Assembly (NCBI RefSeq): GCF_000008625.1
Contig: NC_000918.1
Coordinates: forward strand, 90,001-122,000
Direction: 5' to 3'
DNA from: Aquifex aeolicus VF5
Lineage (GTDB): Bacteria > Aquificota > Aquificia > Aquificales > Aquificaceae
DNA: 32,000 bases
Positions 2 to 24,164 of this stretch are shown piece by piece. The notes under the pieces were generated by a model that worked only from the letters and a program-made list of their open reading frames with translations, made no database searches and was not told the DNA's origin. The stretch's first letter is position 1. Each line of letters starts with the position of its first letter. Position numbers and translations under genes: made by a program.

Positions 2-421
2 GAAGAGCTGGAGAAAGTAAAGGAAGAAGTGAAAAAGATAAAGGAAAAGTACAAAGTGGTGAACATGTTCTCCCCGGAAGAGAAGGAAAGCTTTTACAAA
101 ATTTACGAAGCTACTTATGGAAAAGTTCCAGCGGAAGTATTCAAAGGTGTCGGAAAACCCGTAGAGCTAAAGGAACACCTTCACTTTCACTCCCATGACA
201 GCAGAAAGGAAGAAGTTGTAACCTTTGACAGAGAACTTACGGAAGAAGAACTCGTGAACTTCCTGAAAAACCTGCCAAAGGAAGTTATACGTGCAAAGGG
301 AATTGTTAAGTTAAAGGACTACCCCTTTCCCGTATTCGTCCACTACGTCTTCGGAGATTACGACTACGGAATGCCCGCGGAAAATTACGAAGGAGAGTCT
401 TTCTTGGTTCTAATAAGATGA
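2..421 (+). CDS. COG0523/CobW-family metallochaperone GTPase, C-terminal part (5' end outside the window)
   Basis: The frame is open from the window edge to TGA 419-421. A His-rich HLHFHSHD stretch is followed by a CobW_C-like segment (EVIRAKGIVKL...ESFLVLI). The stop overlaps the deoC ATG (ATGA). Confidence 0.55.
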   Translation, partial: EELEKVKEEVKKIKEKYKVVNMFSPEEKESFYKIYEATYGKVPAEVFKGVGKPVELKEHLHFHSHDSRKEEVVTFDRELTEEELVNFLKNLPKEVIRAKGIVKLKDYPFPVFVHYVFGDYDYGMPAENYEGESFLVLIR

Positions 422-1077
422 TTGATGTAAGGAAGTACATAGACAACGCAGCCCTGAAACCTCACCTCTCTGAAAAAGAAATCGAAGAATTCGTCCTAAA
501 GTCTGAAGAACTCGGGATTTACGCTGTGTGTGTAAACCCGTACCATGTGAAGCTCGCAAGTTCAATAGCAAAGAAAGTAAAAGTCTGCTGTGTGATAGGC
601 TTTCCTTTAGGACTTAACAAAACTTCCGTTAAAGTAAAAGAAGCGGTAGAAGCCGTAAGAGACGGTGCACAGGAACTCGATATCGTGTGGAACCTTTCGG
701 CTTTCAAAAGCGAGAAGTACGATTTCGTGGTGGAAGAATTAAAGGAAATTTTTAGGGAAACTCCTTCAGCAGTTCACAAGGTAATCGTTGAGACACCTTA
801 CTTAAACGAGGAAGAAATAAAGAAAGCGGTGGAAATCTGTATTGAAGCAGGAGCGGACTTTATAAAGACCTCAACGGGCTTTGCACCGAGGGGAACAACA
901 CTCGAAGAGGTAAGACTGATTAAAAGTAGCGCGAAAGGCAGGATTAAGGTAAAAGCTTCGGGAGGGATAAGGGATTTGGAAACGGCAATATCTATGATAG
1001 AGGCGGGGGCGGACAGGATAGGCACGAGCAGCGGTATAAGCATAGCCGAAGAATTTTTAAAACGACATTTGATATAA
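418..1077 (+). CDS. deoC: deoxyribose-phosphate aldolase
   Basis: 219 aa with class I aldolase DERA motifs: VIGFPLG, ELDIV, FIKTSTGF, VKASGGIR, RIGTSSG. Confidence 0.9.
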   Translation: MIDVRKYIDNAALKPHLSEKEIEEFVLKSEELGIYAVCVNPYHVKLASSIAKKVKVCCVIGFPLGLNKTSVKVKEAVEAVRDGAQELDIVWNLSAFKSEKYDFVVEELKEIFRETPSAVHKVIVETPYLNEEEIKKAVEICIEAGADFIKTSTGFAPRGTTLEEVRLIKSSAKGRIKVKASGGIRDLETAISMIEAGADRIGTSSGISIAEEFLKRHLI

Positions 1078-1084
1078 TGTCCCT

Positions 1085-1864
1085 ATGGCGGACAAGAAGT
1101 GGAAAACGGCAATATCTACCCACGTAAATCACGAGCCCTATGTAAGGGGATACAGACTCCTTGACCTTGTAGGAAACCTCACCTTCTCGGAAGCAATATA
1201 TCTCCTCCTCAAGGGAGAACTCCCCTCGGAAGCAGAAGCTAAAATGATGGACGCCATTTTTGTCTCCGTAATTGAACACAGCATAGCACCCCCTTCCGTA
1301 ATAGCCACGCGTGCGGTTATAAGCGGTGGAAACTCTCTGAACGTGGGAGTCGGTGCTGGAGTTCTGGCTTTCGGTAGTGCCCACGGTGGAGCCCTTGAAG
1401 ACGCAATGAAGTTCATGCAGGAAGGAGTAAAGAGCAACAGACCTGTTGAAGAAATAGTAAAGGAGTACTTATCCCAGAAAAAGCCAATACCCGGTTACGG
1501 ACACAGGTACTACAAGGAGTTTGACCCAAGAACGAAGAGATTATTTGAACTTGCGGAAAAGTACGGTTTTTGCAAGGAACACTGCGAATTTGCAAAGAAA
1601 GTAGAAGAAGAGATATACAAACAGAAAGGAAAGAGAATAGTCCTGAACGTTGACGGTGCCATAGCAGCTATAACTTCCGATATGGGCTTCGACTGGAGGC
1701 TCGGTAAAGGATTTTTCATAATCGGAAGAGTGCCCGGACTCGTGGCCCACGCTTACGAAGAATTAACGCAGGAGAAACCCTTCTCCAAGAGACTTTCCGA
1801 AGAGGAGTATGAATACACCGGAGTTGAACCGAGGGAACTCCCGCCCGAAAGGAAGAAGGTATGA
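1085..1864 (+). CDS. ccl: short citrate-synthase-family protein, likely citryl-CoA lyase of the reductive TCA cycle
   Basis: 259 aa, covering only the C-terminal catalytic part of citrate synthase. Motifs seen: EHSIAPPS, SAHGGA, GYGHRYY..DPR. The size and motifs match the small CCL-type proteins of Aquificaceae. Confidence 0.75.
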   Translation: MADKKWKTAISTHVNHEPYVRGYRLLDLVGNLTFSEAIYLLLKGELPSEAEAKMMDAIFVSVIEHSIAPPSVIATRAVISGGNSLNVGVGAGVLAFGSAHGGALEDAMKFMQEGVKSNRPVEEIVKEYLSQKKPIPGYGHRYYKEFDPRTKRLFELAEKYGFCKEHCEFAKKVEEEIYKQKGKRIVLNVDGAIAAITSDMGFDWRLGKGFFIIGRVPGLVAHAYEELTQEKPFSKRLSEEEYEYTGVEPRELPPERKKV

Positions 1865-2366
1865 AAAGGCTTCTCCCCGTCTTCCTCGCCCTTATACTCT
1901 TCGGTTTGTTAGTTTACATAGGACTAAATCAGGATAAACACGATCACTACACAATCACAACCCAGAAAGGTCAGAAAATCCCAAACGTTACCTTAACAAC
2001 ACCTGACGGAAAGAAGGTAAGTATAGAGGAATTTAAAGGGAAGGTTTTGCTCATAAACTTTTGGGCCACTTGGTGTCCTCCCTGTAAAGAAGAAATCCCG
2101 ATGTTTAAAGAGATATACGAAAAGTACAGGGACAGAGGTTTTGAAATACTCGCCATAAACATGGATCCCGAAAACCTCACAGGCTTCCTGAAAAATAACC
2201 CCCTTCCATTCCCGGTATTCGTGATAAACGAGAAGTGGAAAGAGCCTTTAACATTCCAGGGCTTCCAACGTCGTACTTGGTTGACAGAGGAGGAACTATA
2301 GTAAAGGTTCGCTTGGGAATTTACAGGGAGCTGGAAAAGGATTTGAACGATCTTCTGGAAAAGTAA
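1861..2366 (+). pseudogene. TlpA/ResA-like periplasmic thiol:disulfide oxidoreductase, reading frame broken by a 1-nt deletion near 2222-2224
   Basis: N-terminal TM helix plus WATWCPPCKEE thioredoxin motif. After ...NPLPFPVFV the homologous sequence continues in the -1 frame as DKREVERAFNIPGLPTSYLVDRGGTIVKVRLGIYRELEKDLNDLLEK, ending at TAA 2364-2366. Confidence 0.8.
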
Positions 2367-2392
2367 TTAGGTCTTTATAATTTAAAAAGGTT

Positions 2393-2616
2393 ATGAGCAG
2401 TACTGCGAAGAAAATTGTAGTAGCCTTATAGTTTTGAGTATAGCCTTCCTTTCCGCATTCTTTACCGTTTACAACTACTTAAAACATCCAGAAAACAGGG
2501 AGTACTTTTTAAAGAGGCTTGAACGTGCAAGGGAAACAAATCCCATAAAAGAGTCCGTTGAAATGTTAAAAGAAAGATTAAAAGGAGGAGAGCATGAACA
2601 CCAACCTCAAAAGTAG
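2393..2616 (+). pseudogene. frameshifted duplicate of the 74-aa small membrane protein gene (copy 1)
   Basis: ATG 2393 reads MSSTAKKIVVAL then TAG, because of the missing C at 2424-2425. The remainder (ORF 2434-2616) is identical to copy 2. Confidence 0.6.
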
Positions 2617-2671
2617 TCCCCTGAAGACGTTAGTTCTCGCCTCGGTTGTCTTGACTTACGTTATAATTTAA
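2594..2671 (+). pseudogene. duplicated 5' fragment of ctaA (25 codons, then a stop at the duplication junction)
   Basis: MNTNLKSSPLKTLVLASVVLTYV is identical to the ctaA N-terminus at 2881. It runs into the copy-2 junction and stops at TAA 2669-2671. Confidence 0.6.
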
Positions 2672-2678
2672 AAAGGTT

Positions 2679-2903
2679 ATGAGCAGTACTGCGAAGAAAA
2701 TTGTAGTAGCCCTTATAGTTTTGAGTATAGCCTTCCTTTCCGCATTCTTTACCGTTTACAACTACTTAAAACATCCAGAAAACAGGGAGTACTTTTTAAA
2801 GAGGCTTGAACGTGCAAGGGAAACAAATCCCATAAAAGAGTCCGTTGAAATGTTAAAAGAAAGATTAAAAGGAGGAGAGCATGAACACCAACCTCAAAAG
2901 TAG
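2679..2903 (+). CDS. small membrane protein (74 aa, one N-terminal TM helix), function unknown
   Basis: Intact ORF preceded by aaaaagg. It has a hydrophobic N-terminus and a charged C-terminus, and its 3' end overlaps the ctaA start by 23 nt. Confidence 0.5.
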   Translation: MSSTAKKIVVALIVLSIAFLSAFFTVYNYLKHPENREYFLKRLERARETNPIKESVEMLKERLKGGEHEHQPQK

Positions 2904-3771
2904 TCCCCTGAAGACGTTAGTTCTCGCCTCGGTTGTCTTGACTTACGTTTTGATGGTATTCGGAGGTATAGTTACCTCTACGGGTTCAGGGCTCGGATGT
3001 CCCGACTGGCCCCTGTGTCACGGACAACTCCTTCCTTTTCAGTTAAAGGAACAAATTCCCACACCTCCCGCACCCGTGGTAGCTCCAACTCCCCTCCAGC
3101 CCTGGATTGAACAAACACACAGGATACTCGGAGGAATAACTGGCATAGTTCTGCTCGCAACACTCTTTTACGCCTTCAAAAGGGGAACTTCTTTCGTTAA
3201 AAAAGCCCTCGTTTTTATATTCATAGCTCTGATACTGGAAGCCCTTCTCGGCATGAGGGTTGTAATAACGGAGGCACCGCTTCTCAGAGAACTACTCCAC
3301 TATGTCTACACGAGCGCTCACCTCATACTTTCGGTGTTTATACTTTCAACGATAACCATAACTTACTACTACGTTAAGTTTTTTGGGGAAAGGCCTAAGG
3401 AGTACATCCCTTATGCAGATGCCCTCTACGTTGCAACTATGTTCCAGATACTGCTCGGTATATTCGTGAGGTACGTAAAAGCCCTTGAGTACAATCAGTT
3501 TGTTTACTACCTTCACATAACTTACGCGGGTTTCCTCGTTATACTCTCCCTCTTCATAATGTTTAAGGAGTTCAACAAGTACTCTTTAATAACGTTTCTC
3601 TTAATGACCGCTCAGATACTCGCAGGTGTCGCCACCGTGATTTCAGGGTTCTTTTTACCGTACCTCTTTCTTCACATAGCAATAGGATTCTTTATAGTCC
3701 TTTGGGTATCCTACCTTGTAGCACCTTCCGTTTTAAAGACTTATACTGAGTTTAGAGGAGAGCTGGCATGA
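2881..3771 (+). CDS. ctaA: haem A synthase
   Basis: 296 aa polytopic membrane protein with the COX15/CtaA signature GSGLGCPDWPLCHG. GGAGGAG lies upstream of the ATG, and the stop overlaps the ctaB start. Confidence 0.88.
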   Translation: MNTNLKSSPLKTLVLASVVLTYVLMVFGGIVTSTGSGLGCPDWPLCHGQLLPFQLKEQIPTPPAPVVAPTPLQPWIEQTHRILGGITGIVLLATLFYAFKRGTSFVKKALVFIFIALILEALLGMRVVITEAPLLRELLHYVYTSAHLILSVFILSTITITYYYVKFFGERPKEYIPYADALYVATMFQILLGIFVRYVKALEYNQFVYYLHITYAGFLVILSLFIMFKEFNKYSLITFLLMTAQILAGVATVISGFFLPYLFLHIAIGFFIVLWVSYLVAPSVLKTYTEFRGELA

Positions 3772-6896: not shown

Positions 6897-7297
6897 AGAA
6901 GGAGTTCTCCGCAGGGGGAGTGCTTTTCAAAGATGGAGAAGTGCTCCTCATAAAGACTCCCTCAAACGTATGGAGTTTTCCAAAGGGAAACATAGAGCCG
7001 GGAGAAAAACCTGAGGAAACGGCGGTAAGGGAAGTGTGGGAGGAAACAGGAGTAAAGGGAGAGATTCTGGATTACATAGGCGAAATCCACTACTGGTATA
7101 CGCTAAAGGGGGAGCGGATTTTCAAAACCGTAAAGTACTACTTGATGAAGTATAAAGAGGGAGAGCCGAGACCCTCATGGGAAGTGAAAGACGCCAAGTT
7201 TTTTCCAATTAAAGAGGCTAAAAAGTTATTAAAGTACAAAGGAGACAAGGAAATCTTTGAAAAGGCTCTAAAACTCAAGGAAAAGTTCAAACTTTAA
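6893..7297 (+). CDS. NUDIX hydrolase
   Basis: NUDIX box GNIEPGEKPEETAVREVWEETGV; 134 aa. Confidence 0.9.
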   Translation: MKKEFSAGGVLFKDGEVLLIKTPSNVWSFPKGNIEPGEKPEETAVREVWEETGVKGEILDYIGEIHYWYTLKGERIFKTVKYYLMKYKEGEPRPSWEVKDAKFFPIKEAKKLLKYKGDKEIFEKALKLKEKFKL

Positions 7298-8434
7298 CCG
7301 TCCCTTTTTGTTCCTCTTCTATCCTCTCAAGTGTAGGATCATTTTTCTTTCCAGTAAGGATGTCCAGTAGTTCCTTTACGTGTATTATTCCCTGATACTT
7401 GAGCCAGTGTCCGTTAGCACCGCTTATGAATATGCCCTCCTCGTAGTCTCCGAGCCACGCAAGGCCTAACCTGTCCGCTATGCAAAATCCCACTTTCTTA
7501 GCTTCTTCCCCTTTGTTGCACGGAACCACGCAGTGAGAAACGCATCCCTTCCAGCCGTTGTACCCGCTCAAAAGTCTTTCTATAAAGGGTGTTTTTATAA
7601 CCCTCAAGGGATATCCTACGGGAGATTTGAAGAGCATAATATCCTCTTTGTTCAGATTGGTAACGAGCTCTTTGTAAATTTGGGGAGCGTCACACTCGTG
7701 AGTTGCTATAAAACGGGTAGCCATTTGAACGCCAGAAGCTCCCATGTCTATGAATTTCTTAATGTCGTAGTAACTCCAGACTCCGCCTGCAACAATTACG
7801 GGTATATCTCCCCACTTCTTTGCCTCCTCCAGCACAGAGGGGAAAATGTTTTCCAGCTGGTATTCGGGTTTAAAGCAGTCCTCGTACTTAAAGCCCTGGT
7901 GTCCTCCAGACTTTGGACCTTCAAGTATTACGGCGTCTGGAAGTCTATTGTACCTCTTCTTCCAAGTCCTGCAAATTAAGTTCAGCGCCCTTGCGGAAGA
8001 AACTATGGGTACAAGTGCAACGTCATACCCTTTAACGTATTCGGGGAGTTTTAAAGGCAGTCCTGCACCTGATATTATAAGATCCGCACCTGCTTCCGCC
8101 GCGTCCCTTGCTACCCTTCCGTAATCTGTTATAGCGGCGAGTATGTTTACTCCTATAGCTCCCCTTCCGCCCGATATTTCCTTCGCGTCGCGAATGATCT
8201 TCTTGAGAGCTTCGGGGTGGTGCGTGTTTACAGAACCTATCGGTCTTCCGAACTTGTCCCTCTTTACTAGATGGGGATATCTGTAGCCTGTTCCACAGCG
8301 GAAACGACACCAATAGCACCTTCTCTTGCAACGCTTCCGGCGAGCTTTTCCCAGGATATACCAACACCCATTCCGCCTTGAATTATGGGTATATCTACTT
8401 CAATCCTTCCAATTTTTAGCTTTGGTAAGTTCAT
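7287..8434 (-). pseudogene. FMN-dependent nitronate monooxygenase / FabK-like enoyl reductase family (COG2070), frame broken by a 1-nt deletion at 8293-8294
   Basis: ATG 8434, with AAGGAGAGG upstream, gives MNLPKLKIGRIEVDIPIIQGGMGVGIS...GVVSAV. The homologous sequence continues in the next frame as GTGYRYPHLV...GVNILAA...GPKSGGHQGF..., running into ORF 7287-7835. That frame has no start codon before the GTG at 7835. Confidence 0.85.
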
Positions 8435-11034: not shown

Positions 11035-11811
11035 ATGCGCGTAGGGATAGTGGGTTTTGGGAATATGGGACAGGCTTTTGCCTTGTGCTTTTCAAAAAAA
11101 CTCGGTAAAGAAAACATAATAGTCACGGACAAGGTTCAGGAAAAGAGAAACCTCGCAACGGAGATGGGAATAGCTTTTGCAAGTGATGTAAAATTCTTGG
11201 CGGACAACTCAGACGTTGTTCTCGTAGCGGTAAAGCCCAAGGACTCGCAGGAGGTTTTACAAAAACTAAAGGATTACAAAGGGATAATTCTCAGCATAAT
11301 GGCGGGAGTGAGTATTGAGAAAATGGAAAAAATCTTAGGAAAGGATAAAAAGATAGTAAGGGTAATGCCAAACGTAAACGTGGCCGTGGGAAGCGGTGTT
11401 ATGGCGATAACCGACAACGGGAACCTGAGCGAAGAAGAAAGAAGTAAAGTAGAGGAACTTCTGCTTTCCTGCGGAACTCTTTACCGTATAGAGGAAAGAT
11501 TATTTGACGCCTTTACCGCACTTGCAGGAAGCGGACCCGCTTTCGTTTTCTCCTTTATAGACGCTCTGGCACTTGCGGGAGTCCATCAAGGTTTTTCTTA
11601 CGAACAAGCCCTCAGGATAGCCCTTGACACGGTTATGGGTAGTGCAAAACTCTTGAAAGAGTTTCAGGTAAATCCTAACGAGCTCATAGCTAAGGTCACC
11701 TCTCCCGGCGGAACGACTATTGAAGGGATAAAGTACCTTGAGGAAAAGGGATTTAAAGGCACGGTTATGGAATGTATAAACAGGACTTCCCAGAAGGCAA
11801 AGAAGCTTTGA
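11035..11811 (+). CDS. proC: pyrroline-5-carboxylate reductase
   Basis: MRVGIVGFGNMG Rossmann N-terminus and SPGGTT motif. ATG 11035 is preferred over the upstream 11014 start, which would overlap the rsmE start. Confidence 0.9.
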   Translation: MRVGIVGFGNMGQAFALCFSKKLGKENIIVTDKVQEKRNLATEMGIAFASDVKFLADNSDVVLVAVKPKDSQEVLQKLKDYKGIILSIMAGVSIEKMEKILGKDKKIVRVMPNVNVAVGSGVMAITDNGNLSEEERSKVEELLLSCGTLYRIEERLFDAFTALAGSGPAFVFSFIDALALAGVHQGFSYEQALRIALDTVMGSAKLLKEFQVNPNELIAKVTSPGGTTIEGIKYLEEKGFKGTVMECINRTSQKAKKL

Positions 11812-12392
11812 ATTTAGAGATAAGGCTGGGAAATAAACTCGTAAGATTCAGGAAATTCACAGGAAAGGAAAAGATTTACCTTCCCATTCAAAGACACACC
11901 GATAAAGTTATAAAACTAATTGATAAAGACTCACCACCCCTTGAGGGAGATGCGGTAATAACGAACTTAAAGAACGTAGAAATTGGGGTAAGAACAGCGG
12001 ATTGCGTGCCGATAATACTTCTTGGAAAGGAATGGGTAGGCGCGGTTCACGCAGGCTGGAGAGGGCTAAAAAAGGGGATAATAGCGAAAACCCTAAAAGC
12101 ATTAAAAGAAGAAGGAGAAGACGACATTACGGCTTTAGTCTTTCCCTCCGCAAAGGGTTGTTGTTACGAAGTGGGAAAAGAGTTTAAAGAATTTTTCAGA
12201 AGGAATTTAAAGGAAAGAAACGGAAAGCTTTTCTTTGATCCTCAGAGGGAAGCTGTAGAACAACTAAGGGAGAACGGAATAAAGAGTATTCTTGTATGGG
12301 AAAAGTGCACTATATGTTCTCCGGAGCTACCCTCCTACAGGAGGGATAAAACGAAAGAAAGAATGCTTACAAGCGTCGTTATACTGTTTTAA
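11772..12392 (+). CDS. pgeF: YfiH/PgeF (DUF152) purine nucleoside phosphorylase / peptidoglycan editing factor family
   Basis: Motifs QRHTDKV, GDAVIT, TADCVPI, HAGWRG, CYEV and SYRRD. The exact start is uncertain; the ORF overlaps the proC 3' end by 40 nt. Confidence 0.75.
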   Translation: MYKQDFPEGKEALNLEIRLGNKLVRFRKFTGKEKIYLPIQRHTDKVIKLIDKDSPPLEGDAVITNLKNVEIGVRTADCVPIILLGKEWVGAVHAGWRGLKKGIIAKTLKALKEEGEDDITALVFPSAKGCCYEVGKEFKEFFRRNLKERNGKLFFDPQREAVEQLRENGIKSILVWEKCTICSPELPSYRRDKTKERMLTSVVILF

Positions 12393-13296
12393 TCTTCCCT
12401 GCAAAGTTCTTTTATTTCTTCCAGATAAACCTTTATTATCTTCAAATAGCTTTTATACCTCTCACACGAAATTTCTCCGTTCTTTACTGCTTCTTTTACA
12501 GCACAGCCCGGTTCGTTCGTATGCGTGCAGTCAGGGTACTTACACTGATACCTTAAAAACTCCCTGAAGTAATTTCTCACTTCTCTTGGTTTTACGAACA
12601 TCGTAGCCTCAACCTTTGAAAATCCGGGAGTGTCCCCTACAAAGGATCCCTTTCCGAAGGGAATTAACCTGACTCCCGTGGTGGTATGTCTTCCTCTTTC
12701 CGTTTTTTCGCTTACTTCCTGCGTTCTCAACTCTTCTCCCGTGAGCCTTGAAAGGATTGAGCTCTTACCTACACCCGAGGGTCCCGCCAAAATGCATATA
12801 AAACCTTCAAGGTAATCAACTAGTTCATCTATTCCCTCTCCCGTTTTAGCGCTTACCTTGAGAACGTCGTAGCCCGCATCCCTGTAAATGCTATCCATCT
12901 TTCAAGTTCCTTCTTTTCCTCTTCGTTCAAAAGATCTATTTTGTTAAACACTATTACGGGTTCTACTTTGAAGTATTCGTAAACGACTAGCATGTTGTCA
13001 AGCAGGTAGTTGTTGAATTCTGGCATTTTTAAAGTTTCAACTATTATTACTCTGTCAACGTTTGCGACTTTGGGTCTTATGAGGAGGTTTTTCCTTTCCT
13101 CTACCTCTTCTATCGCAAAGGTATTCGGATCTACAACCTCTCCCCAGACGTAATCACCGGCGTTAATTTTTGTCTTCTTCAGAACTTTTCCCCTCGGAAT
13201 TCCCCTGTAAGTTTTGCCGTCCTCAAACAGGTAAACGCCTATCATCTGGGCTTCCCTGTCTACGACGAGTCCCCTTTTCAATTCTTTCTTTCCCAT
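12389..13296 (-). pseudogene. rsgA: ribosome small-subunit biogenesis GTPase RsgA/YjeQ, frame broken by a 1-nt deletion near 12896-12900
   Basis: ORF 12853-13296 carries the OB fold and the G4 motif (VFNKIDL). ORF 12389-12898 carries G1 (GPSGVGKSS), G3 (DTPGF) and the C-terminal zinc knuckle (CKYPDCTHTNEPGC). The junction reads ...KKELER / DSIYRDAGYDV. Confidence 0.9.
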
Positions 13297-14718: not shown

Positions 14719-15598
14719 ATGATGCACGAGAAGCTGGAAAGGATTTGTTCCGTAATAGAACACTACCTCTCGGATATTTTGGGAAGGATAAGGGTGTACA
14801 GGGATGAGGCAAACTTCCTTATACCTTGGGGTTCTACTGTAATAAACGTGAACGTGTTTGGAGGAAGAAGAGGTATACATTGATGTAAACTCCCCTGTGG
14901 CTTTAAAGGTTCATCCGAGTAAAGACTTGATGAAGTTCCTATTATCGGAAAACGCAAACCTGAAGATGGCGTCTTTTTTTACGGAATTCGAAAAGGGTTT
15001 TATGGATATAATCGTAGGCATAAAAATAAGGTATAAGGATTTATCAAGGGAATTATTAAAGTTTGTAGTACTCAACATAGGTAATTTGGCAAACGAATAC
15101 GGAAAGGAAATAAGGGCTGTATTCGGTGGACTCTCCTTTAAGGAATATCTGGAGAGAGAAAAGTACTCTTACCCTTATTCGGGAGAAAAGCTCTTTCAGG
15201 AGAAGATTTCAATTAACGGAACGCTGCTTTTACTTGAAGTGTATGTGAAAGAAGAAAATTACACACTCATATGCCGAGAGGAAGGTAGTTCCAATTACCT
15301 TATAAAGGCTATAAGAAAAGTTGAAGGCCCCTATGAGGCTTTAAAAATACTTGAAAAAGCAAAAGAAAGTATTAAGAACAGAGATTTTGTATCTTTGAGA
15401 AAACTCTTCAGTCCGTACGAGGTAGACTTTTTTGAACTTTATTCCGTATTCCTTAAAGGAAAGGACACGACAAAACTGAAAAAACTTGAAAAAGAAATTC
15501 ACGAACTCCCGTATATGCTTATAAACGGAAAAATAACTTACGAGGAGTATAAGAAGAGGATAAGGGAAATAGAAAAGGAAATAGGGCTTTCGGAGTAG
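14719..15598 (+). pseudogene. YbjN-like (putative sensory-transduction/chaperone-like) domain protein with a long C-terminal extension, frame break near 14860-14861
   Basis: ORF 14695-14883 (…FLIPWGSTVINVNVF) and ORF 14858-15598 (EEEEVYIDVNSPVALKV...LLSENANLKMASF) together form one YbjN-type domain. This needs removal of one G from TTTGGAGG. The domain assignment is by eye. Confidence 0.5.
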
Positions 15599-15603
15599 CA
15601 AGA

Positions 15604-15816
15604 ATGAAATTAAAAAAACCTGCTAAAAAAACCTTAGAGGAAATAGGAAAACACTACCTGAATATCGGAGTAGCTATTATAGTTTTCGCAATAATACAAC
15701 CTATTGTACAGGGGAAATTTAATATTAAAGTTGCTCTATATTTTGGATTAGCATATTTTATTGTTTTCTCAATTGCAATAATATTATTAGTAATAGGAGG
15801 TTCCTGTGATGAATGA
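15604..15816 (+). CDS. small two-TM membrane protein, unknown function
   Basis: 70 aa with a basic N-terminus (MKLKKPAKK) and two hydrophobic helices. It lies in a markedly AT-rich segment. Confidence 0.45.
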   Translation: MKLKKPAKKTLEEIGKHYLNIGVAIIVFAIIQPIVQGKFNIKVALYFGLAYFIVFSIAIILLVIGGSCDE

Positions 15817-15928
15817 TATGTTTTTATATTACTTAATTCTTTTTTCTTTTGTATTACTCGCAGGAATATTTGGAATAGGAATAGTAATTCTGAGTTCTAA
15901 ATATAGTGATACTAAAAACAAGACTTAA
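15809..15928 (+). CDS. possible 39-aa single-TM protein (MNDMFLYYLILFSFVLLAGIFGIGIVILSSKYSDTKNKT)
   Basis: It is below the ORF-track cutoff. GGAGG lies upstream at 15796-15800. The ORF overlaps the preceding ORF by 8 nt, and its 3' end overlaps the convergent glycosylase gene. Confidence 0.3.
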   Translation: MNDMFLYYLILFSFVLLAGIFGIGIVILSSKYSDTKNKT

Positions 15929-16574
15929 TACATTTCTCTCTCAGCGGACACTCTTCACATAGTGGCTTTTTCTTGCAAAACTCCTTTGCATGAATGTCTA
16001 TAAGTGCGTGAAATTCTCTGTAAATTTCTAAATCTTTTGGCAAATTTTTCTCAAAAAGTCTTTTTATTTCTTCGTAAGAACCTTTTATATTCCACAATCT
16101 TTCGAGGAGTCTTTTGGTGTAGGCGTCTACAACGAACTCCAGTCTGTCGAGAGCGTAAAGTAGAATAGCATCAGCGGTTTCTTTTCCTATTCCTTTAACT
16201 TTTAAGAGGTCTTCCCTCTTCACATTTTTTAGATGGGAAATACTCGGAAACTTGTTCGCAAACTCCTTAAGGTATAGGCTCTTCTGTCTGTAAAATCCCG
16301 CAGGTTTTATTAATTCCATTAATTTTTCAGTAGGAATTTCCTTTATCGCCTTCAAGTTCAGGGCTTTTTCCCGTTTTAAGTTTTCCAGAGCTTTTTCAAC
16401 GTTTTTCCACGAAGTGTTTTGAGTCAGAATTGCACCGATGATTACCTCTTCTCTGGGATCGGAACCGTGAGTTTTGTGGTATTCAAGATCTACAGGCCAC
16501 CAGTTTTGCTTTCCGTAAAACTGAAGGAGTTTATCGTAAAGTTCAATTAACTCTCTTTTACCAATTCCAGACAT
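15912..16574 (-). CDS. endonuclease III-related HhH-GPD DNA glycosylase (COG2231/MpgII-like) with a C-terminal Fe-S Cys cluster
   Basis: Helix-hairpin-helix LLKVKGIGKETADAILLYAL, catalytic-region VVDAYTKRLL, and C-terminal CKKKPLCEECPLREKC. Confidence 0.85.
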   Translation of the reverse strand: MSGIGKRELIELYDKLLQFYGKQNWWPVDLEYHKTHGSDPREEVIIGAILTQNTSWKNVEKALENLKREKALNLKAIKEIPTEKLMELIKPAGFYRQKSLYLKEFANKFPSISHLKNVKREDLLKVKGIGKETADAILLYALDRLEFVVDAYTKRLLERLWNIKGSYEEIKRLFEKNLPKDLEIYREFHALIDIHAKEFCKKKPLCEECPLREKCIKSCF

Positions 16575-17290
16575 CCAAATCCCTGATAACGGCGGAAACC
16601 GAGTCCGTACTTGTACACTTCGTTTAAAACGTATGGGTCACCTTCTAAAGTAAAAACTCCTTGATAGGCTACTATCTTTATGACTTTTTCGTTTTCTCTG
16701 TTTCCTACGACGTGTTTTACAACGGACTTCTTCCCTTCTTGGTGTTCAAACTTTAGTTCCGGAAGACCGTTGAAAATACACTTCAAAGAATACCTGAGTT
16801 CCTGCGTAAAGGCTCCGTCGTCGTATAAAATGAAATCGTCATTTCTATTTCCGAGCTTTGAAGGAAGAACAGGCTTTTTATCCCTGTTTATAACGACTAT
16901 GGGGGAAAGCGTTCTAAAGGTTTGTCTTGGCTTTGTAATTTGTTCTTCCTCGCACATAAGAACCTTCTTTACCTTAATGTTTCCGTTTGTGTATCTGCCG
17001 TTGTATTCCCTTAACTTTTTTAGTCCGTTGTAGAACCTGTGGAAAAAGTCAGGACTTCCCGAAGACACGGTCATTATAGCCTTCCCGTTGTTTTCAAGGA
17101 TTTCACCGTTTATCCTTATATTTTCGAAGAACACGCAAAAGGTAAAAGGTTTAAAGTTCTTCTTCTGGAAGAGATCCTTTGCGTAATTCTCGTCTTCCTT
17201 CTCTAAAGCCTTTTTTATTAAGGAAAGGAAGGATCGTCTGTAGAAGATCGATATCTCCTTGGGGACTTCCAGATAAGCTTTTACCCTCAT
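16547..17290 (-). CDS. cas6: Cas6-like RAMP-family endoribonuclease homologue (stand-alone)
   Basis: 247 aa. The N-terminus reads MRVKAYLEV...KPFTFCVF. TLSPIVV occurs mid-protein. The C-terminal glycine-rich loop GLGFRRYQGFG fits the Cas6 G-x-G-x5-G-x-G signature exactly. The ATG overlaps the yidC stop (ATGA). Confidence 0.6.
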   Translation of the reverse strand: MRVKAYLEVPKEISIFYRRSFLSLIKKALEKEDENYAKDLFQKKNFKPFTFCVFFENIRINGEILENNGKAIMTVSSGSPDFFHRFYNGLKKLREYNGRYTNGNIKVKKVLMCEEEQITKPRQTFRTLSPIVVINRDKKPVLPSKLGNRNDDFILYDDGAFTQELRYSLKCIFNGLPELKFEHQEGKKSVVKHVVGNRENEKVIKIVAYQGVFTLEGDPYVLNEVYKYGLGFRRYQGFGCLELVKES

Positions 17291-18795
17291 TTTTTCTTAC
17301 TCCCCCCTTTTGATTTGTCTTTAAGGAGAACCTCTTTTATCAAATAGTTCTGAATAATATTGAATACGTTGTTCAGCGTCCAGTAAAGAACCAGTCCCGC
17401 CGGGAAGTTTATAAAGAGTAATGTGAATGCCACCGAGGTTATGTATCCCACAAGGGCCTGCTTTGGATCGGGGGAAGGAGTCATCTTTTGCTGAAGTATC
17501 ATGGTAAGTCCCATAATAACGGGAAGTATGTAATAGGGATCCTTGTCCGCAAGGCTGGGAATCCAGAGGAAACTGCTGACTTTCAGATCTACGGTTATTA
17601 TGAGAACCTTGTATAGCGCAAAGAATATAGGTATCTGGAGGAGTATGGGAAGGCATCCTGCCATAGGGTTGAATCCCGTTTCCGCGTAGAGTTTCATCAT
17701 CTCTTCCTGCATCTTTACGGGATCGTCCTTATACTTCTGTTTAATCTTTTCCATTTTAGGGGCGAGTTCTTGAAGCTTTTGCATAGAAACTACGCTTTTG
17801 TACCCCAGCGGGAAGAGGAAAATCCTGACTATAAACGTGAGAACGAGGATAGAGAGAACCCAGCTTCCCGTGTGTTCGTATATCCAGTACAGGAAGAGAA
17901 AGAGCGGTTTTACTATTATCTTTAAAGTTCCCCAGTCTAAGGTATCTACCAAACCAAGTTCTCTGAGCCTTGCATAGTCCTTCGCACCAAGGTATATGGT
18001 CTTCTCTCCATCGTAAAGGAAAGTGGAAAGTGATACAAATTTATCTCCTAGTTTTACTTTGTAAACTATGTGTTTCTGGTAATCCTTTGCCCCTTTAAAG
18101 AAGTACCTGCTTTCCTCTCCTCCAAACTCAATATTCCCTTCAAACTCATTTATACCCTTTAGATCATCCACATCAAGCCTTACAACTTCCCCGTTTATTT
18201 TCAGAACAGGTCCTACGTGTGTATAAAATGCCTCATCATCGGGAGGAGAACCTACAAACACCCAGAAGGGTGGTTTTAATCCTTCAACGCTTAAATGAAT
18301 TGCTCCGTTTTTATAGGAAAGTATTTTCTTTACTTTCAGCTCCTTGTGGATTAATTCGACTGAGTTTTTACCTTCTTTAATTTCGTATTCTCCAAAGTTT
18401 AATTTCTGATCAAGGTCTGGATTTCCCGTGAATATCTCCAGAGGGAATATTTTTAACTCTCTTTCAGCTTTCGATATTAAATCAAAGCCGTACTTCTGAT
18501 CTATAAATCTTAAAATTTTCCCGCCTTTTTCAGACAATTCCAAGGAATAAATTCCTAGTTTTACAGTTTTAGTGTTTTTATACTCCTGTTTTTCTCTGAA
18601 AGTTCCGAGCATTAACTGGGGAAGGTTTACGTTTTTAAACTCTTCTTTTTTTACTACTTCTTTTTTTTCTGTTTTTTGAGGTTGAGAGGGTTTAACGTAA
18701 TAAATGTAAAATAGCTCGTAAGCGGTTATGAATAAAAACATTAAGATTGTGAATATTAAAAACCTTTTCCAGAACTGGTTGTCGTTGTCCATCAT
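17287..18795 (-). CDS. yidC: membrane protein insertase YidC
   Basis: 502 aa with an N-terminal TM helix, a large periplasmic domain and the conserved 5-TM C-terminal core (PLFLFLYWIY..., GCLPILLQIPIFFALY, LYWTLNNVFNIIQ). Confidence 0.92.
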   Translation of the reverse strand: MMDNDNQFWKRFLIFTILMFLFITAYELFYIYYVKPSQPQKTEKKEVVKKEEFKNVNLPQLMLGTFREKQEYKNTKTVKLGIYSLELSEKGGKILRFIDQKYGFDLISKAERELKIFPLEIFTGNPDLDQKLNFGEYEIKEGKNSVELIHKELKVKKILSYKNGAIHLSVEGLKPPFWVFVGSPPDDEAFYTHVGPVLKINGEVVRLDVDDLKGINEFEGNIEFGGEESRYFFKGAKDYQKHIVYKVKLGDKFVSLSTFLYDGEKTIYLGAKDYARLRELGLVDTLDWGTLKIIVKPLFLFLYWIYEHTGSWVLSILVLTFIVRIFLFPLGYKSVVSMQKLQELAPKMEKIKQKYKDDPVKMQEEMMKLYAETGFNPMAGCLPILLQIPIFFALYKVLIITVDLKVSSFLWIPSLADKDPYYILPVIMGLTMILQQKMTPSPDPKQALVGYITSVAFTLLFINFPAGLVLYWTLNNVFNIIQNYLIKEVLLKDKSKGGSKKK

Positions 18796-18998
18796 GGGTA
18801 ATCAACTCCTCCCTTAAAGAAAGGGTTGCACCTCAAGACTCTGAAGAAAGCCTTAATAAGTCCCTTCAGCACTCCGTACTTTTCCACAGCCATTATAGCG
18901 TATGTAGAACAAGTAGGGTAATACCTACAGGAAGAAGGGTAAAGAGGAGATATAAACTTCTGCCAGAATTTTAAGAAAATTAAAACTATACTTTTCAT
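18792..18998 (-). CDS. yidD: membrane protein insertion efficiency factor YidD
   Basis: 68 aa with FISPL...CRYYPTCSTYA...RCNPF..GG.D signature. The stop overlaps the yidC start. Confidence 0.9.
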   Translation of the reverse strand: MKSIVLIFLKFWQKFISPLYPSSCRYYPTCSTYAIMAVEKYGVLKGLIKAFFRVLRCNPFFKGGVDYP

Positions 18999-19001
18999 AA
19001 C

Positions 19002-19145
19002 TTAAGGAGCGAGTCTCTTCCTGCCTTTTCTCCTCCTTCTGGCTATGATCTTCCTTCCAGACTTCGTTCTCATTCTTGCGAGAAATCCGCTCTTTCTCTT
19101 CTTCTTTTTTATAGATATATGCGGTTTTAATCCTTCGGTTACCAT
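19002..19145 (-). CDS. rpmH: 50S ribosomal protein L34
   Basis: It is not in the ORF track (47 aa). Translation: [53 protein letters not shown] lies upstream. The stop is 3 nt before the yidD ATG. Confidence 0.9.
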
Positions 19146-19188: not shown

Positions 19189-19491
19189 TTAAACCACGAA
19201 GAGCAGTATGAAAGCTATGAGCAATCCGTAAAGAGCGATAGTTTCTATAAACGCAAGTCCTATGAACATAAGGGTTTGAAGTCTTCCGCCTGCGTTGGGA
19301 TTCCTCGCAACACCTTCCTGAGTTCCCCTAACGGCATGACCCATACCAACTCCGGCACCGAGTCCTGCAAGCCCTATAGCAAGTCCTGCTCCAAGGTACA
19401 GAAGTCCCTTAGCTACGGAAGCCTCTCCTTCCGCTGCCATTGCTATAGCAGGCATTATAGCGGTTAAGATAGCCATTAACCTCTTCATCAC
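19189..19491 (-). CDS. atpE: F0F1 ATP synthase subunit c
   Basis: 100 aa with a Gly-rich helix 1 ([12 protein letters not shown]), the ARNP loop and the carboxylate in FIETIALYG. It also has an about 20-aa N-terminal hydrophobic extension. Confidence 0.95.
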
Positions 19492-19506
19492 CTACCTCCT
19501 TAAAGC

Positions 19507-19914
19507 TTATTTAACTATAAGAGAAGCCAAGTTTAGTCCGTCTATTACCTTACAAAGGTACGCGGAAGGGTAACAAGCCCATACCACGAGCTCGTACCCT
19601 TTCCCTTCCACAAACTTCTTCACTTCTTCACTCAGCGGTCCTATCCTGTACTCAACACCGGGAATTTCCGTACTTCCAGTTAATTTTTCCCAAACTTCTC
19701 TCAATCTTCTCTCTATACGCTTCTTACTCTCTTCCTTTATCTCAGGTGGAAAGGGAAGACCGAAAGTTACATTAGCCCTCTCTAAGTTGTAAACGTCTTC
19801 CAGTACAGCCAGAATGTCTAGCTCCGCACCAAGTTTTTCGGAGAAGTTCACGGCGTAAGTAATCGCCTTTTCGCAATCGCTGTAAGCGTCTGTTAAAACT
19901 AGCAGTACCTTCAT
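19507..19914 (-). CDS. universal-stress-protein-like alpha/beta domain protein (degenerate)
   Basis: 135 aa. MKVLLVLTDAYSDCEKAITYAV...LDILAVLEDV...YELVVWA has a USP-like layout. The assignment is by eye only. Confidence 0.45.
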   Translation of the reverse strand: MKVLLVLTDAYSDCEKAITYAVNFSEKLGAELDILAVLEDVYNLERANVTFGLPFPPEIKEESKKRIERRLREVWEKLTGSTEIPGVEYRIGPLSEEVKKFVEGKGYELVVWACYPSAYLCKVIDGLNLASLIVK

Positions 19915-19915
19915 A

Positions 19916-20566
19916 TCAGTGCTCCTCGTGTGCTACAGCTCCGGCTATGTAAACCACCGAGAGTATCATAAAGATGTAAGTCTGTATGAATATGGCGAGG
20001 AACTTTATAGCTATAACGAATATAAGCACAACCGGTGATACTACCAGCGTGAATGGATTCTTGATAACCAGGCTTACTAAAGTAAGAAGTAGGAGTGCTC
20101 CCGCTTTCATGTTTGCGAATAACCTGAGGGAGAGGGTGATTGGTCTTGCTATGTGAGATATAACTTCAACCACGAAGAAAAAGGGAGCCATTAGAGGTAT
20201 GGGTCCCATAAAGTGTTTCAAATAAGCAAGACCGTTTTCCCTGAAGCCTTCAAAGTGGTAATAAAAGAACACTAAAAGTGCTAAAGCTAGGTTGGTGTTT
20301 ATGTTTGCGGTAGGAGCTTCAAAGCCGGGAACCATTCCTAGTATGTTCCCGAAGAAAACGAAGAGTCCTATGGCTGCTATCAAGGGTACGTATTTAAGTC
20401 CTCTTTCGCCTACGTTTTCCAGGAGCATATTCCTGACGAATCTCAGGTATCCTTCCAGTAGAGCTTGATACTTTGTAGGTTTAAGGGAAGGTTTTCCTCC
20501 TTTGAGGACGAAAATTATCGCAAGTGCCACCGCTAAGAGTGCGTAAACTACGTGCGAGTACTCCAT
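19916..20566 (-). CDS. atpB: F0F1 ATP synthase subunit a
   Basis: 216 aa polytopic protein with the conserved Arg region [11 protein letters not shown]. Confidence 0.92.
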
Positions 20567-23304: not shown

Positions 23305-23531
23305 TCTTCTTTACTTCCACTTTCTTCCTTTTTCTTTATTATCTTTACCTTCCCTTCCGCAATATCTTCTATTGCTGCGAAGGTTTTTTTGTGAACCTCT
23401 CCCCCTTCCTGGACAAAAAAGTCCTCTCCTTCCCTGAGGAGCTGAAGCGTTCTCCTTACGGCTGCGTGCACGAGTTCATAGCGGGACTCAACCCTTTTCA
23501 TAGCTTCCTCTATCTTAGGTCTCCTTGACAT
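23301..23531 (-). CDS. rpoZ: DNA-directed RNA polymerase subunit omega
   Basis: SRYELVHAAVRRTLQL is the omega core. AGGAGG lies 8 nt upstream of ATG 23531; the GTG at 23540 is the alternative start. It sits in the conserved gmk-rpoZ arrangement. Confidence 0.85.
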   Translation of the reverse strand: MSRRPKIEEAMKRVESRYELVHAAVRRTLQLLREGEDFFVQEGGEVHKKTFAAIEDIAEGKVKIIKKKEESGSKEE

Positions 23532-24164
23532 AACACTCACCTCCTTTGAGTAAATCTACGATATCCTTATCGAGCCTGAACTTCTCTATCTCATCCAGGA
23601 CTCTCTCCTTCTTCACTCTGTAAGAGAGAATTATAGATTTTACCTTTTCTACCGCTTCGTTCAAGTAGTCGTTTATAACTATGTAATCGAAAAACCTTGC
23701 ACAGGGAACCTCTCCTTTAGCTGTTTCAAGCCTCTTGCTTACGTTGGAATCTACGTAACCTCTTCCTTCAATCCTCCTCTTAAGTTCTTCAAAGGAGGGA
23801 GGGAGGAGGAAAATGGTAACGGCTTCGGGGAAGAACTTCTTCACTTTAAAGGCACCCTGGACGTCTATGATAAGGAGCGCGTCCTTTTTCTCTACGTTTA
23901 TGGTTTCCTCTATGTCCTTCTTCGGCGTCCCATAGTAATTTCCGTAAACGTTCGCGTACTCGAGGAAGAAGCCTTCCTTTATCTTCTTCTCAAATTCTTC
24001 TACGGAAACGAATACGTAGTCTACTCGTTTTGTTCGTAGGGGCGGGGACTTCTCGTGGTGTAGGTAACTATCCTCTTGAGGTCGGAGACTTCGGAGAGCA
24101 ATTTCTGTGCTACCGTCGTTTTTCCAGTTCCCGAGGGTGCGGAAAGCACGAATAAATTTCCCAT
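23515..24164 (-). pseudogene. gmk: guanylate kinase, frame broken by a 1-nt deletion at about 24025-24026
   Basis: ATG 24164 gives MGNLFVLSAPSGTGKTTV...TTRSPRPYEQN, then a stop. Adding one G restores ...EQNGVDYVFVSVEEF...YGNYYGTPK..., which runs into ORF 23515-23844. Confidence 0.9.

Follow-up and report, generated by a model that had tools for sequence, protein, structure and literature searches.

A Cas6 endoribonuclease gene behind yidC, detached from the cas locus, in Aquifex aeolicus VF5

The 32,000-nucleotide stretch of the Aquifex aeolicus VF5 chromosome analysed here (contig NC_000918.1, positions 90,001 to 122,000; hereafter the window) carries, directly behind the membrane protein insertase gene yidC, the gene aq_173, whose product proves to be a true Cas6 in both sequence and fold. 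The gene is conserved and is detached from the cas locus of the strain, in which no cas6 was found. With a probability of roughly 0.85, we consider that aq_173 is a Cas6 encoded apart from the genes it serves, processing CRISPR RNA (crRNA) from dispersed arrays. Such a trans-acting enzyme had been one of two possibilities raised in an earlier reading of the letters without database searches (the sequence-only reading), and it is favoured because the locus combining type III-B and type I-B genes lacks cas6 over the 11.4 kb read, because five arrays have been reported for the species, and because the nearest operon-embedded homologues are type I-B cas6 genes. Nothing positive speaks for the other possibility, a non-CRISPR role linked to membrane-protein biogenesis, as cas6 is joined to yidC in the Aquifex clade alone.

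The proposal that this 247-residue product is a Cas6 was borne out at every level of comparison. Three libraries of profile hidden Markov models place it in the Cas6 family, each above its curated cutoff where one exists, namely TIGR01877 (cas_cas6; 132.2 bits, cutoff 58.65), PF01881 (72.2 bits, cutoff 23), and the PADLOC models Cas6 (200.9 bits) and Cas6b (177.5 bits), and Pfam and NCBIfam gave no KH, R3H, or Jag_N match even at E<=10, nor any other non-Cas domain. An exhaustive HMMER search returned 473 relatives at E<=0.001, 86 of which were taken into an alignment and profile. While aq_173 as a single sequence had no match in the PDB, a family profile being required, the 86-member profile matched solved structures from M. 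jannaschii (5yi6, E=3.6e-29) and P. furiosus (3pkm, 1.1e-21), as well as P. furiosus 3i4h and P. horikoshii Cas6nc (about 1e-21 to 1e-19). An AlphaFold2 model built on the homologue alignment reached a mean predicted local distance difference test (pLDDT) value of 96 and a predicted template-modelling score (pTM) of 0.91, and its predicted architecture consists of two beta-alpha-beta-beta-alpha-beta units, i.e., tandem ferredoxin-like/RNA recognition motif (RRM) domains. When this model was compared to the PDB with Foldseek, the top 24 matches were stand-alone Cas6 structures and the later ones Cas6-family or repeat-associated mysterious protein (RAMP) structures, with template-modelling (TM) scores of 0.70-0.76 to 5yi6, 3qjj, and 3pkm (about 0.75 to the P. 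furiosus enzyme, PfuCas6, and to P. horikoshii Cas6nc, PhCas6nc). The profile and structure checks suggested with the sequence-only reading thus both lead to Cas6, and the landmarks it listed are all present: an N-terminal MRVKAYLEV (listed as MRVK), KPFTF at residues 47-51, TLSPIVV at 127-133, and GLGFRRYQGFG at 229-239, the last fitting the GhGxxxxxGhG motif described for Cas6 (Haft 2005, PMC1282333). The identification itself is already known and the gene is an ordinary one: the window protein is identical over all 247 residues to aq_173 of A. aeolicus VF5 (O66560, WP_010880058.1, AAC06528.1), which RefSeq names "CRISPR-associated endoribonuclease Cas6". No paper on aq_173 biochemistry was found in the literature, the only one matching the gene name dealing, by its title, with carbon fixation.

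Conservation across the 86 homologues is concentrated in the expected functional positions. Y17, R18, S23, K26, K47, N88, T127-x-S129-P130, R233, R234, and the glycines of the loop are each shared by between 69 and all 86 of the sequences, G229 and G239 being strictly invariant and G231, R233, R234, and G237 each retained in 69-81 sequences. In a profile alignment, the Tyr31/His46/Lys52 triad of PfuCas6 (Reeks et al. 2013, PMC3652601) corresponds to Lys26/Phe41/Lys47 of aq_173. The active-site lysine is maintained, with K47 aligning to K52 of PfuCas6 (the position of Lys51 in the S. solfataricus enzyme, SsoCas6) and lysine occupying this column in 81 of 86 homologues. Where histidine-dependent enzymes of the PfuCas6, Cas6e, or Cas6f type carry their histidine, in or before helix alpha-1, aq_173 has Phe41, and the column of PfuCas6 His46 holds Tyr in 56, Phe in 26, and His in 1 of the 86 homologues. 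Because Tyr or Phe is found in 82 of 86, the alignment indicates that loss of the histidine is a trait of the subfamily and not decay. Cas6 proteins without a catalytic histidine can be active, SsoCas6 relying on K25, K28, K51, and R231/232 (PMC3652601); reviews describe catalytic residues as varying between Cas6 proteins, and the histidine is not defining for Cas6 as a whole (reviews; PMC3652601).

The closest homologues embedded in cas operons (P0028 and P0027, 36-41% identity) are the sole cas6, and the first gene, of complete type I-B operons with the order cas6-cas8b-cas7-cas5-cas3-cas4-cas1-cas2. This indicates that ordinary type I-B systems do their processing with the histidine-less form; no biochemical characterisation of this subfamily was found in the literature. 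Since these nearest operon-embedded relatives head type I-B operons, and given the PADLOC Cas6b score, aq_173 can be assigned from its sequence relationships to the type I-B Cas6 lineage. The gene itself lies neither within nor next to a type I-B operon or array, the type I-B operon being found on a different contig.

The stand-alone position noted in the sequence-only reading holds for the whole window: Tandem Repeats Finder, Rfam, a search for direct repeats, and a scan for spaced repeats all failed to detect a CRISPR array in the 32 kb, the Aquificaceae repeat does not occur in it at <=3 mismatches, and no other cas gene is present among its annotated open reading frames (ORFs). A lead to COG1851 taken from Makarova 2006 was also followed, and yielded nothing recognisable among the unassigned ORFs of the window. 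The cas genes of the strain were instead reached through a Cas1 query (the PDB 2yzs sequence, rebuilt from an alignment), which gave a 100% match to "type I-B Cas1b [Aquifex aeolicus]" and to a locus, L059, in a Logan assembly. Another Logan contig from the same sample (L001) is 100% identical to window positions 6547-27290 over 20,744 bp, and L059 therefore represents the cas locus of this strain. Its gene order is Cmr-type RAMP, Cmr6, Csx1 (CARF-HEPN), Csx3, CARF-TM, Cas7b, Cas5, Cas8b, Cas3, Cas4, Cas1, Cas2, and no cas6 was found in this III-B plus I-B locus within the 11.4 kb read, a stretch that starts 7 kb into its contig. A second type I-B operon of the Aquifex clade (L109) likewise has no cas6, a SAVED-Lon gene running straight into cas7. 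A Cas7b query from another Aquificaceae locus returned no A. aeolicus member among the 120 matches listed. In two independent A. aeolicus assemblies (L059 and L060), the cas contig stops at the same base, 195 bp past cas2. This shared break fits a repeat element starting there, which could be an array or another repeat, and the last 30 nt of both ends show no resemblance to the Aquificaceae repeat family.

For the arrays of VF5 itself, the literature reports five CRISPR loci, each made up of four to five repeats and only some of them flanked by cas genes (Lechner et al. 2014, PMC4227106), and CRISPR/cas loci spanning arrays (Haft et al. 2005, PMC1282333). The full 29-mer repeat was not found in the literature searched. 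In related Aquificaceae the repeats are 29 nt long, take the form GTTGCTAAT..ACCGTGTGGAGTTGAAAC, and end in GTTGAAAC. Many arrays of this family are surrounded by housekeeping genes (metG, dnaK, and others; e.g., L006, L018, L022, L026, L045, L046), no cas genes being found near them in the fetched 4.5-8 kb loci, and lone single copies of the same repeat also occur (e.g., L019, L027, L033, L047). A contig scan with CCGTGTGGAGTTGAAAC, a putative core of the A. aeolicus repeat, recovered arrays in Hydrogenobacter and in Aquificaceae metagenome-assembled genomes, and none in VF5, whose chromosome does not seem to be among the contigs scanned. Folding of the repeat RNA gave at most a marginal 5-bp hairpin that was not significant, which fits the closest structural relatives of aq_173, as these handle unstructured repeats.

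Upstream of cas6, Pfam and NCBIfam annotation confirmed the housekeeping genes atpE-rpmH-yidD-yidC named in the sequence-only reading, as part of one operon-like chain atpB - usp-like - atpE - rpmH - yidD - yidC (Table 1). The cas6 start codon overlaps the yidC stop codon in an ATGA, as had been noted from the letters, and the 3' end of cas6 shares 28 nt with the start of a DNA glycosylase gene. The order atpB-usp-atpE-rpmH-yidD-yidC-cas6-glycosylase recurs in every orthologue context of the Aquifex clade (L050-L055, L063, L066), in which Cas6 is 65-70% and YidC 68-82% identical to the window proteins. Within the clade, yidC and cas6 meet with anything between a 4-nt overlap and a 3-nt gap (between a 1-nt overlap and a 3-nt gap in the orthologues), even where outer flanks differ, the cas6/glycosylase overlap measures 22-31 nt, and a purine-rich ribosome-binding site (GGGGAGGAG, GGGAAGGGG) stands at the place of GGGGGGAG in five orthologous loci. 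Proportions of nonsynonymous differences (pN) and their ratio to synonymous ones (pN/pS) were used instead of dN/dS, as synonymous sites are saturated. By this measure, cas6 (pN 0.18-0.22) is about as constrained as yidC (0.15-0.21) and the nth-like glycosylase somewhat less so (0.21-0.29), and cas6 has a pN/pS of 0.21-0.27 at saturated synonymous sites. The gene is clearly maintained, under purifying selection, in the Aquifex clade.

Outside of this clade the linkage ends, so that the check on related genomes suggested with the sequence-only reading has a split outcome: kept throughout the Aquifex clade, the arrangement is absent from the next lineages. In these (YidC 51-52% identical), the atpB-atpE-yidD-yidC block is kept, and what comes next is either an oppositely oriented AIR-synthase-like gene or an epimerase gene plus rtcA; neither cas6 nor jag is found after yidC. 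The sequence-only reading had also remarked that many bacteria place the RNA-binding protein Jag/KhpB in this position; the site after yidC is indeed the same, but the nearest other lineages hold unrelated genes there, not jag. The nearest Cas6 outside of the Aquifex clade (P0025, 41% identity; L056/L057 10001-10765) is also stand-alone, located between encapsulin (Linocin_M18)/ligA and uvrC-mazG-clpX-clpP, and has neither a cas gene nor an array within 10 kb. Because the yidC linkage ends at the Aquifex clade, and because P0025 stands alone beside unrelated genes, the position of cas6 behind yidC is better explained by scattering of genes, as is typical of Aquificota, than by a functional tie to membrane-protein insertion. 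The conserved placement of cas6 in the yidC operon is a lineage-specific detail of gene order, undescribed in the literature as far as we found.

Table 1. Coordinates of cas6, its signature and junction elements, and its neighbours in the window
Feature	Position in window	Strand	Description and support
cas6 (aq_173)	16547..17290	-	247 aa, ATG start; endoribonuclease assigned by sequence to the type I-B Cas6 lineage; away from other cas genes
GLGFRRYQGFG glycine-rich loop codons	16574..16606	-	residues 229-239; RAMP/Cas6 signature; homologue alignment
Shine-Dalgarno GGGGGGAG for cas6	17300..17307	-	within last yidC codons, 9 nt before ATG; read from sequence
ATGA overlap of cas6 start and yidC stop	17287..17290	-	ATG 17290-17288, TGA 17289-17287
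yidC	17287..18795	-	membrane protein insertase, 502 aa; PF02096 200.8 bits; TIGR03592 and TIGR03593 above cutoff
yidD	18792..18998	-	PF01809 98.4 bits
rpmH	19002..19145	-	ribosomal protein L34; PF00468
atpE	19189-19491	-	PF00119 / PF00137 support the atpB and atpE calls
Usp-like gene	19507-19914	-	Usp 24.9 bits
atpB	19916-20566	-	head of chain with Usp-like gene and atpE (19189..20566)
HhH-GPD DNA glycosylase (Nth/MagIII-like)	15912..16574	-	PF00730 80.3 bits; NF010494 124 bits, below its cutoff

We propose that cas6 is very probably transcribed together with the atpB-atpE-rpmH-yidD-yidC chain and would be translated by re-initiation at the ATGA overlap, an arrangement that may ensure a steady, constitutive supply of Cas6. 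The enzyme would then act in trans, binding the essentially unstructured repeats of about 29 nt in the five small dispersed arrays and presumably cutting 8 nt from the repeat 3' end, which would leave a 5' handle of the GUUGAAAC type. The resulting crRNAs would be passed to the type I-B Cascade, and probably also to the III-B Cmr complex, both encoded at the distant locus. Judging from the alignment, catalysis may proceed via Lys26, Lys47, and Arg233/Arg234, perhaps with Tyr17, instead of a histidine, and this putative Lys/Arg chemistry resembles that of the histidine-less Sulfolobus Cas6. Such an arrangement is consistent with earlier surveys: the Cas6-type RAMP family is often encoded outside of cas operons, with A. 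aeolicus among the genomes named (Makarova 2006, PMC1462988), and cas6 can stay fixed while effector modules are swapped (Koonin and Makarova 2019).

Several observations weigh against this proposal. A second cas6 may exist in the cmr part of the cas locus or elsewhere in VF5, and for A. aeolicus a further Cas6-like (COG5551-type) gene context is hinted at in Makarova 2006 (PMC1462988). The presence of Phe41 in place of the canonical catalytic histidine means that the sequence, as aligned here, gives no guarantee of activity. Co-transcription of cas6 with yidC, however probable, is deduced from gene spacing, and a promoter/terminator scan recovered fewer sites than, or no more sites than, in shuffled sequence. 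In A. pyrophilus, moreover, a locus-encoded cas6 (236 aa, located before cas7, 32% identical to aq_173) coexists with the yidC-linked copy, and the latter is thus not simply the only Cas6 supply in this species. The A. pyrophilus cas locus (L061) has further features of its own: a single degenerate repeat of the GTTGCTAAT..ACCGTGTGGAGTTGAAAC family follows cas2 and the leader (11679-11700), a CalpS/CalpT/CalpL-like module (HTH, CRISPR-T-like, and SAVED-Lon protease proteins) precedes the type I-B operon (412-3685), and a long prokaryotic Argonaute (pAgo) with PAZ and PIWI domains is encoded about 4 kb downstream of cas2 (15309-17423).

With its histidine replaced, aq_173 might alternatively be non-catalytic, like P. 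horikoshii Cas6nc; it would then bind repeat RNA or serve as a chaperone or regulator, and cutting of the precursor crRNA would fall to a different nuclease. Along with Phe41, the occurrence of Lys26 at the position of PfuCas6 Tyr31 and the ranking of PhCas6nc (3qjj) among the best structural matches favour this alternative. We nonetheless hold it unlikely, as the replacement is subfamily-wide and includes the sole cas6 of complete type I-B operons, which would otherwise be left with no processing enzyme, and as K26, K47, R233, and R234 are kept (69-83 of 86), residues like in kind to the catalytic ones of histidine-less SsoCas6. Loss of function could also be imagined at the level of the whole system, with aq_173 a decaying remnant of a lost CRISPR-Cas that survives only through the overlaps with its neighbours. 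While the isolation of the gene from other cas genes and the very small size of the VF5 arrays (four to five repeats each; PMC4227106) would agree with this, an intact frame in at least 8 divergent orthologues (65-90% identity), the low pN/pS at saturated synonymous sites, the retention of all signature residues, the very confident AlphaFold2 model, and the full type I-B and III-B gene sets kept in the genome make decay the least credible of the readings considered.

Two further alternatives take the genomic position as a clue to function. In one, aq_173 would be a RAMP-fold RNA-binding protein with a non-CRISPR housekeeping role tied to YidC and membrane-protein biogenesis, standing in the Jag/KhpB position. 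The yidC-cas6 junction is kept in every Aquifex-clade locus seen, even with rearranged outer flanks, protein divergence of cas6 is as low as that of yidC, and A. pyrophilus retains its yidC-linked copy despite a locus-encoded cas6. Yet the linkage stops at the Aquifex clade, with neither jag nor cas6 after yidC in the next lineages, and aq_173 carries neither KH nor R3H nor any other domain foreign to Cas proteins; its closest relatives are genes of type I-B operons, the host type I-B operon has no cas6 among its own genes and so needs an outside supply, and no repeat-like local target is present in the operon or the window. The neighbours of stand-alone P0025 (encapsulin, ligA, uvrC) likewise indicate scattering and not a yidC-specific function, and we regard such a role as very improbable. 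Only slightly harder to credit would be a Cas6 paralogue kept at rpmH-yidD-yidC for a second, non-CRISPR substrate, in housekeeping RNA processing or chaperoning; the persistence of the yidC-linked copy beside the locus-encoded cas6 of A. pyrophilus would then be explained. The setting for such a substrate would be a lineage with no rnpA between rpmH and yidD and no jag after yidC. In the window, rnpA is absent between rpmH and yidD, and yidD and yidC directly follow rpmH (19002-18998 junction), which agrees with the reported absence of a classical RNase P from Aquificaceae.

Elsewhere in the window, a 287-bp tandem duplication (2375-2949; 2.0 copies, 99% identical, differing by a 1-nt indel) doubles a small ORF of about 70 aa and the 5' end of ctaA/cox15 (2881-3771), and a single 70-aa ORF is found at this place in a related locus (L054). 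Relative to intact orthologues in L050, three genes are split by frame changes: rsgA (12389-13296; 302 aa in L050), an NMO-like gene (7287-8434; 384 aa in L050), and gmk (23515-24164; 215 aa in L050). Two of them, gmk and rsgA, normally have important roles. Since the independent Logan assembly is 100% identical over the region, the frame changes appear to be genuine features of this strain. Finally, the segment 28960-31451 encodes a 407-aa protein of baeRF family 12/10 (eRF1 domain 3; bacterial archaeo-eukaryotic release factor type), preceded by a 400-aa ORF with no family match.

Taken together, aq_173 illustrates well how an essential housekeeping operon would provide, in trans, the crRNA-processing enzyme for dispersed mini-arrays and for cas operons apparently devoid of cas6. 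Genes of this kind are missed by array-centred cas-locus finders in scrambled genomes such as that of Aquifex, and the conserved yidC-cas6 junction could serve to mark the Aquifex clade. Beyond correct annotation, the finding matters little.

Among known systems, the Cas6 proteins of type I-B (Tneap-type) loci, recognised by TIGR01877 and resembling PADLOC Cas6b (e.g., P0027, P0028), are the closest: they belong to the same subfamily, have the same length, carry Tyr or Phe for the histidine, and share Y17, R18, S23, K26, K47, N88, T-x-S-P, and the glycine-rich loop with aq_173, but they head a cas operon, whereas aq_173 is detached, behind yidC. P. furiosus Cas6 (PF1131; 3pkm, 3i4h) has the same two-RRM fold (TM about 0.75), although identity is only about 20% and its Tyr31/His46/Lys52 are replaced as described above. 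That enzyme acts on non-hairpin repeats, leaves an 8-nt 5' tag, and is loosely bound to effector complexes, so that it can supply several of them. S. solfataricus Cas6 (Sso1437, 3zfv; related 4ill) is likewise a structural match with no catalytic histidine, in which Lys and Arg residues carry out catalysis; it is dimeric, crenarchaeal, and much more distant (TM 0.43-0.60), and its likeness to aq_173 is one of residue kind. Jag/KhpB, in contrast, shares with aq_173 only the position after yidC, the fold of aq_173 being that of Cas6, with no Jag domains.

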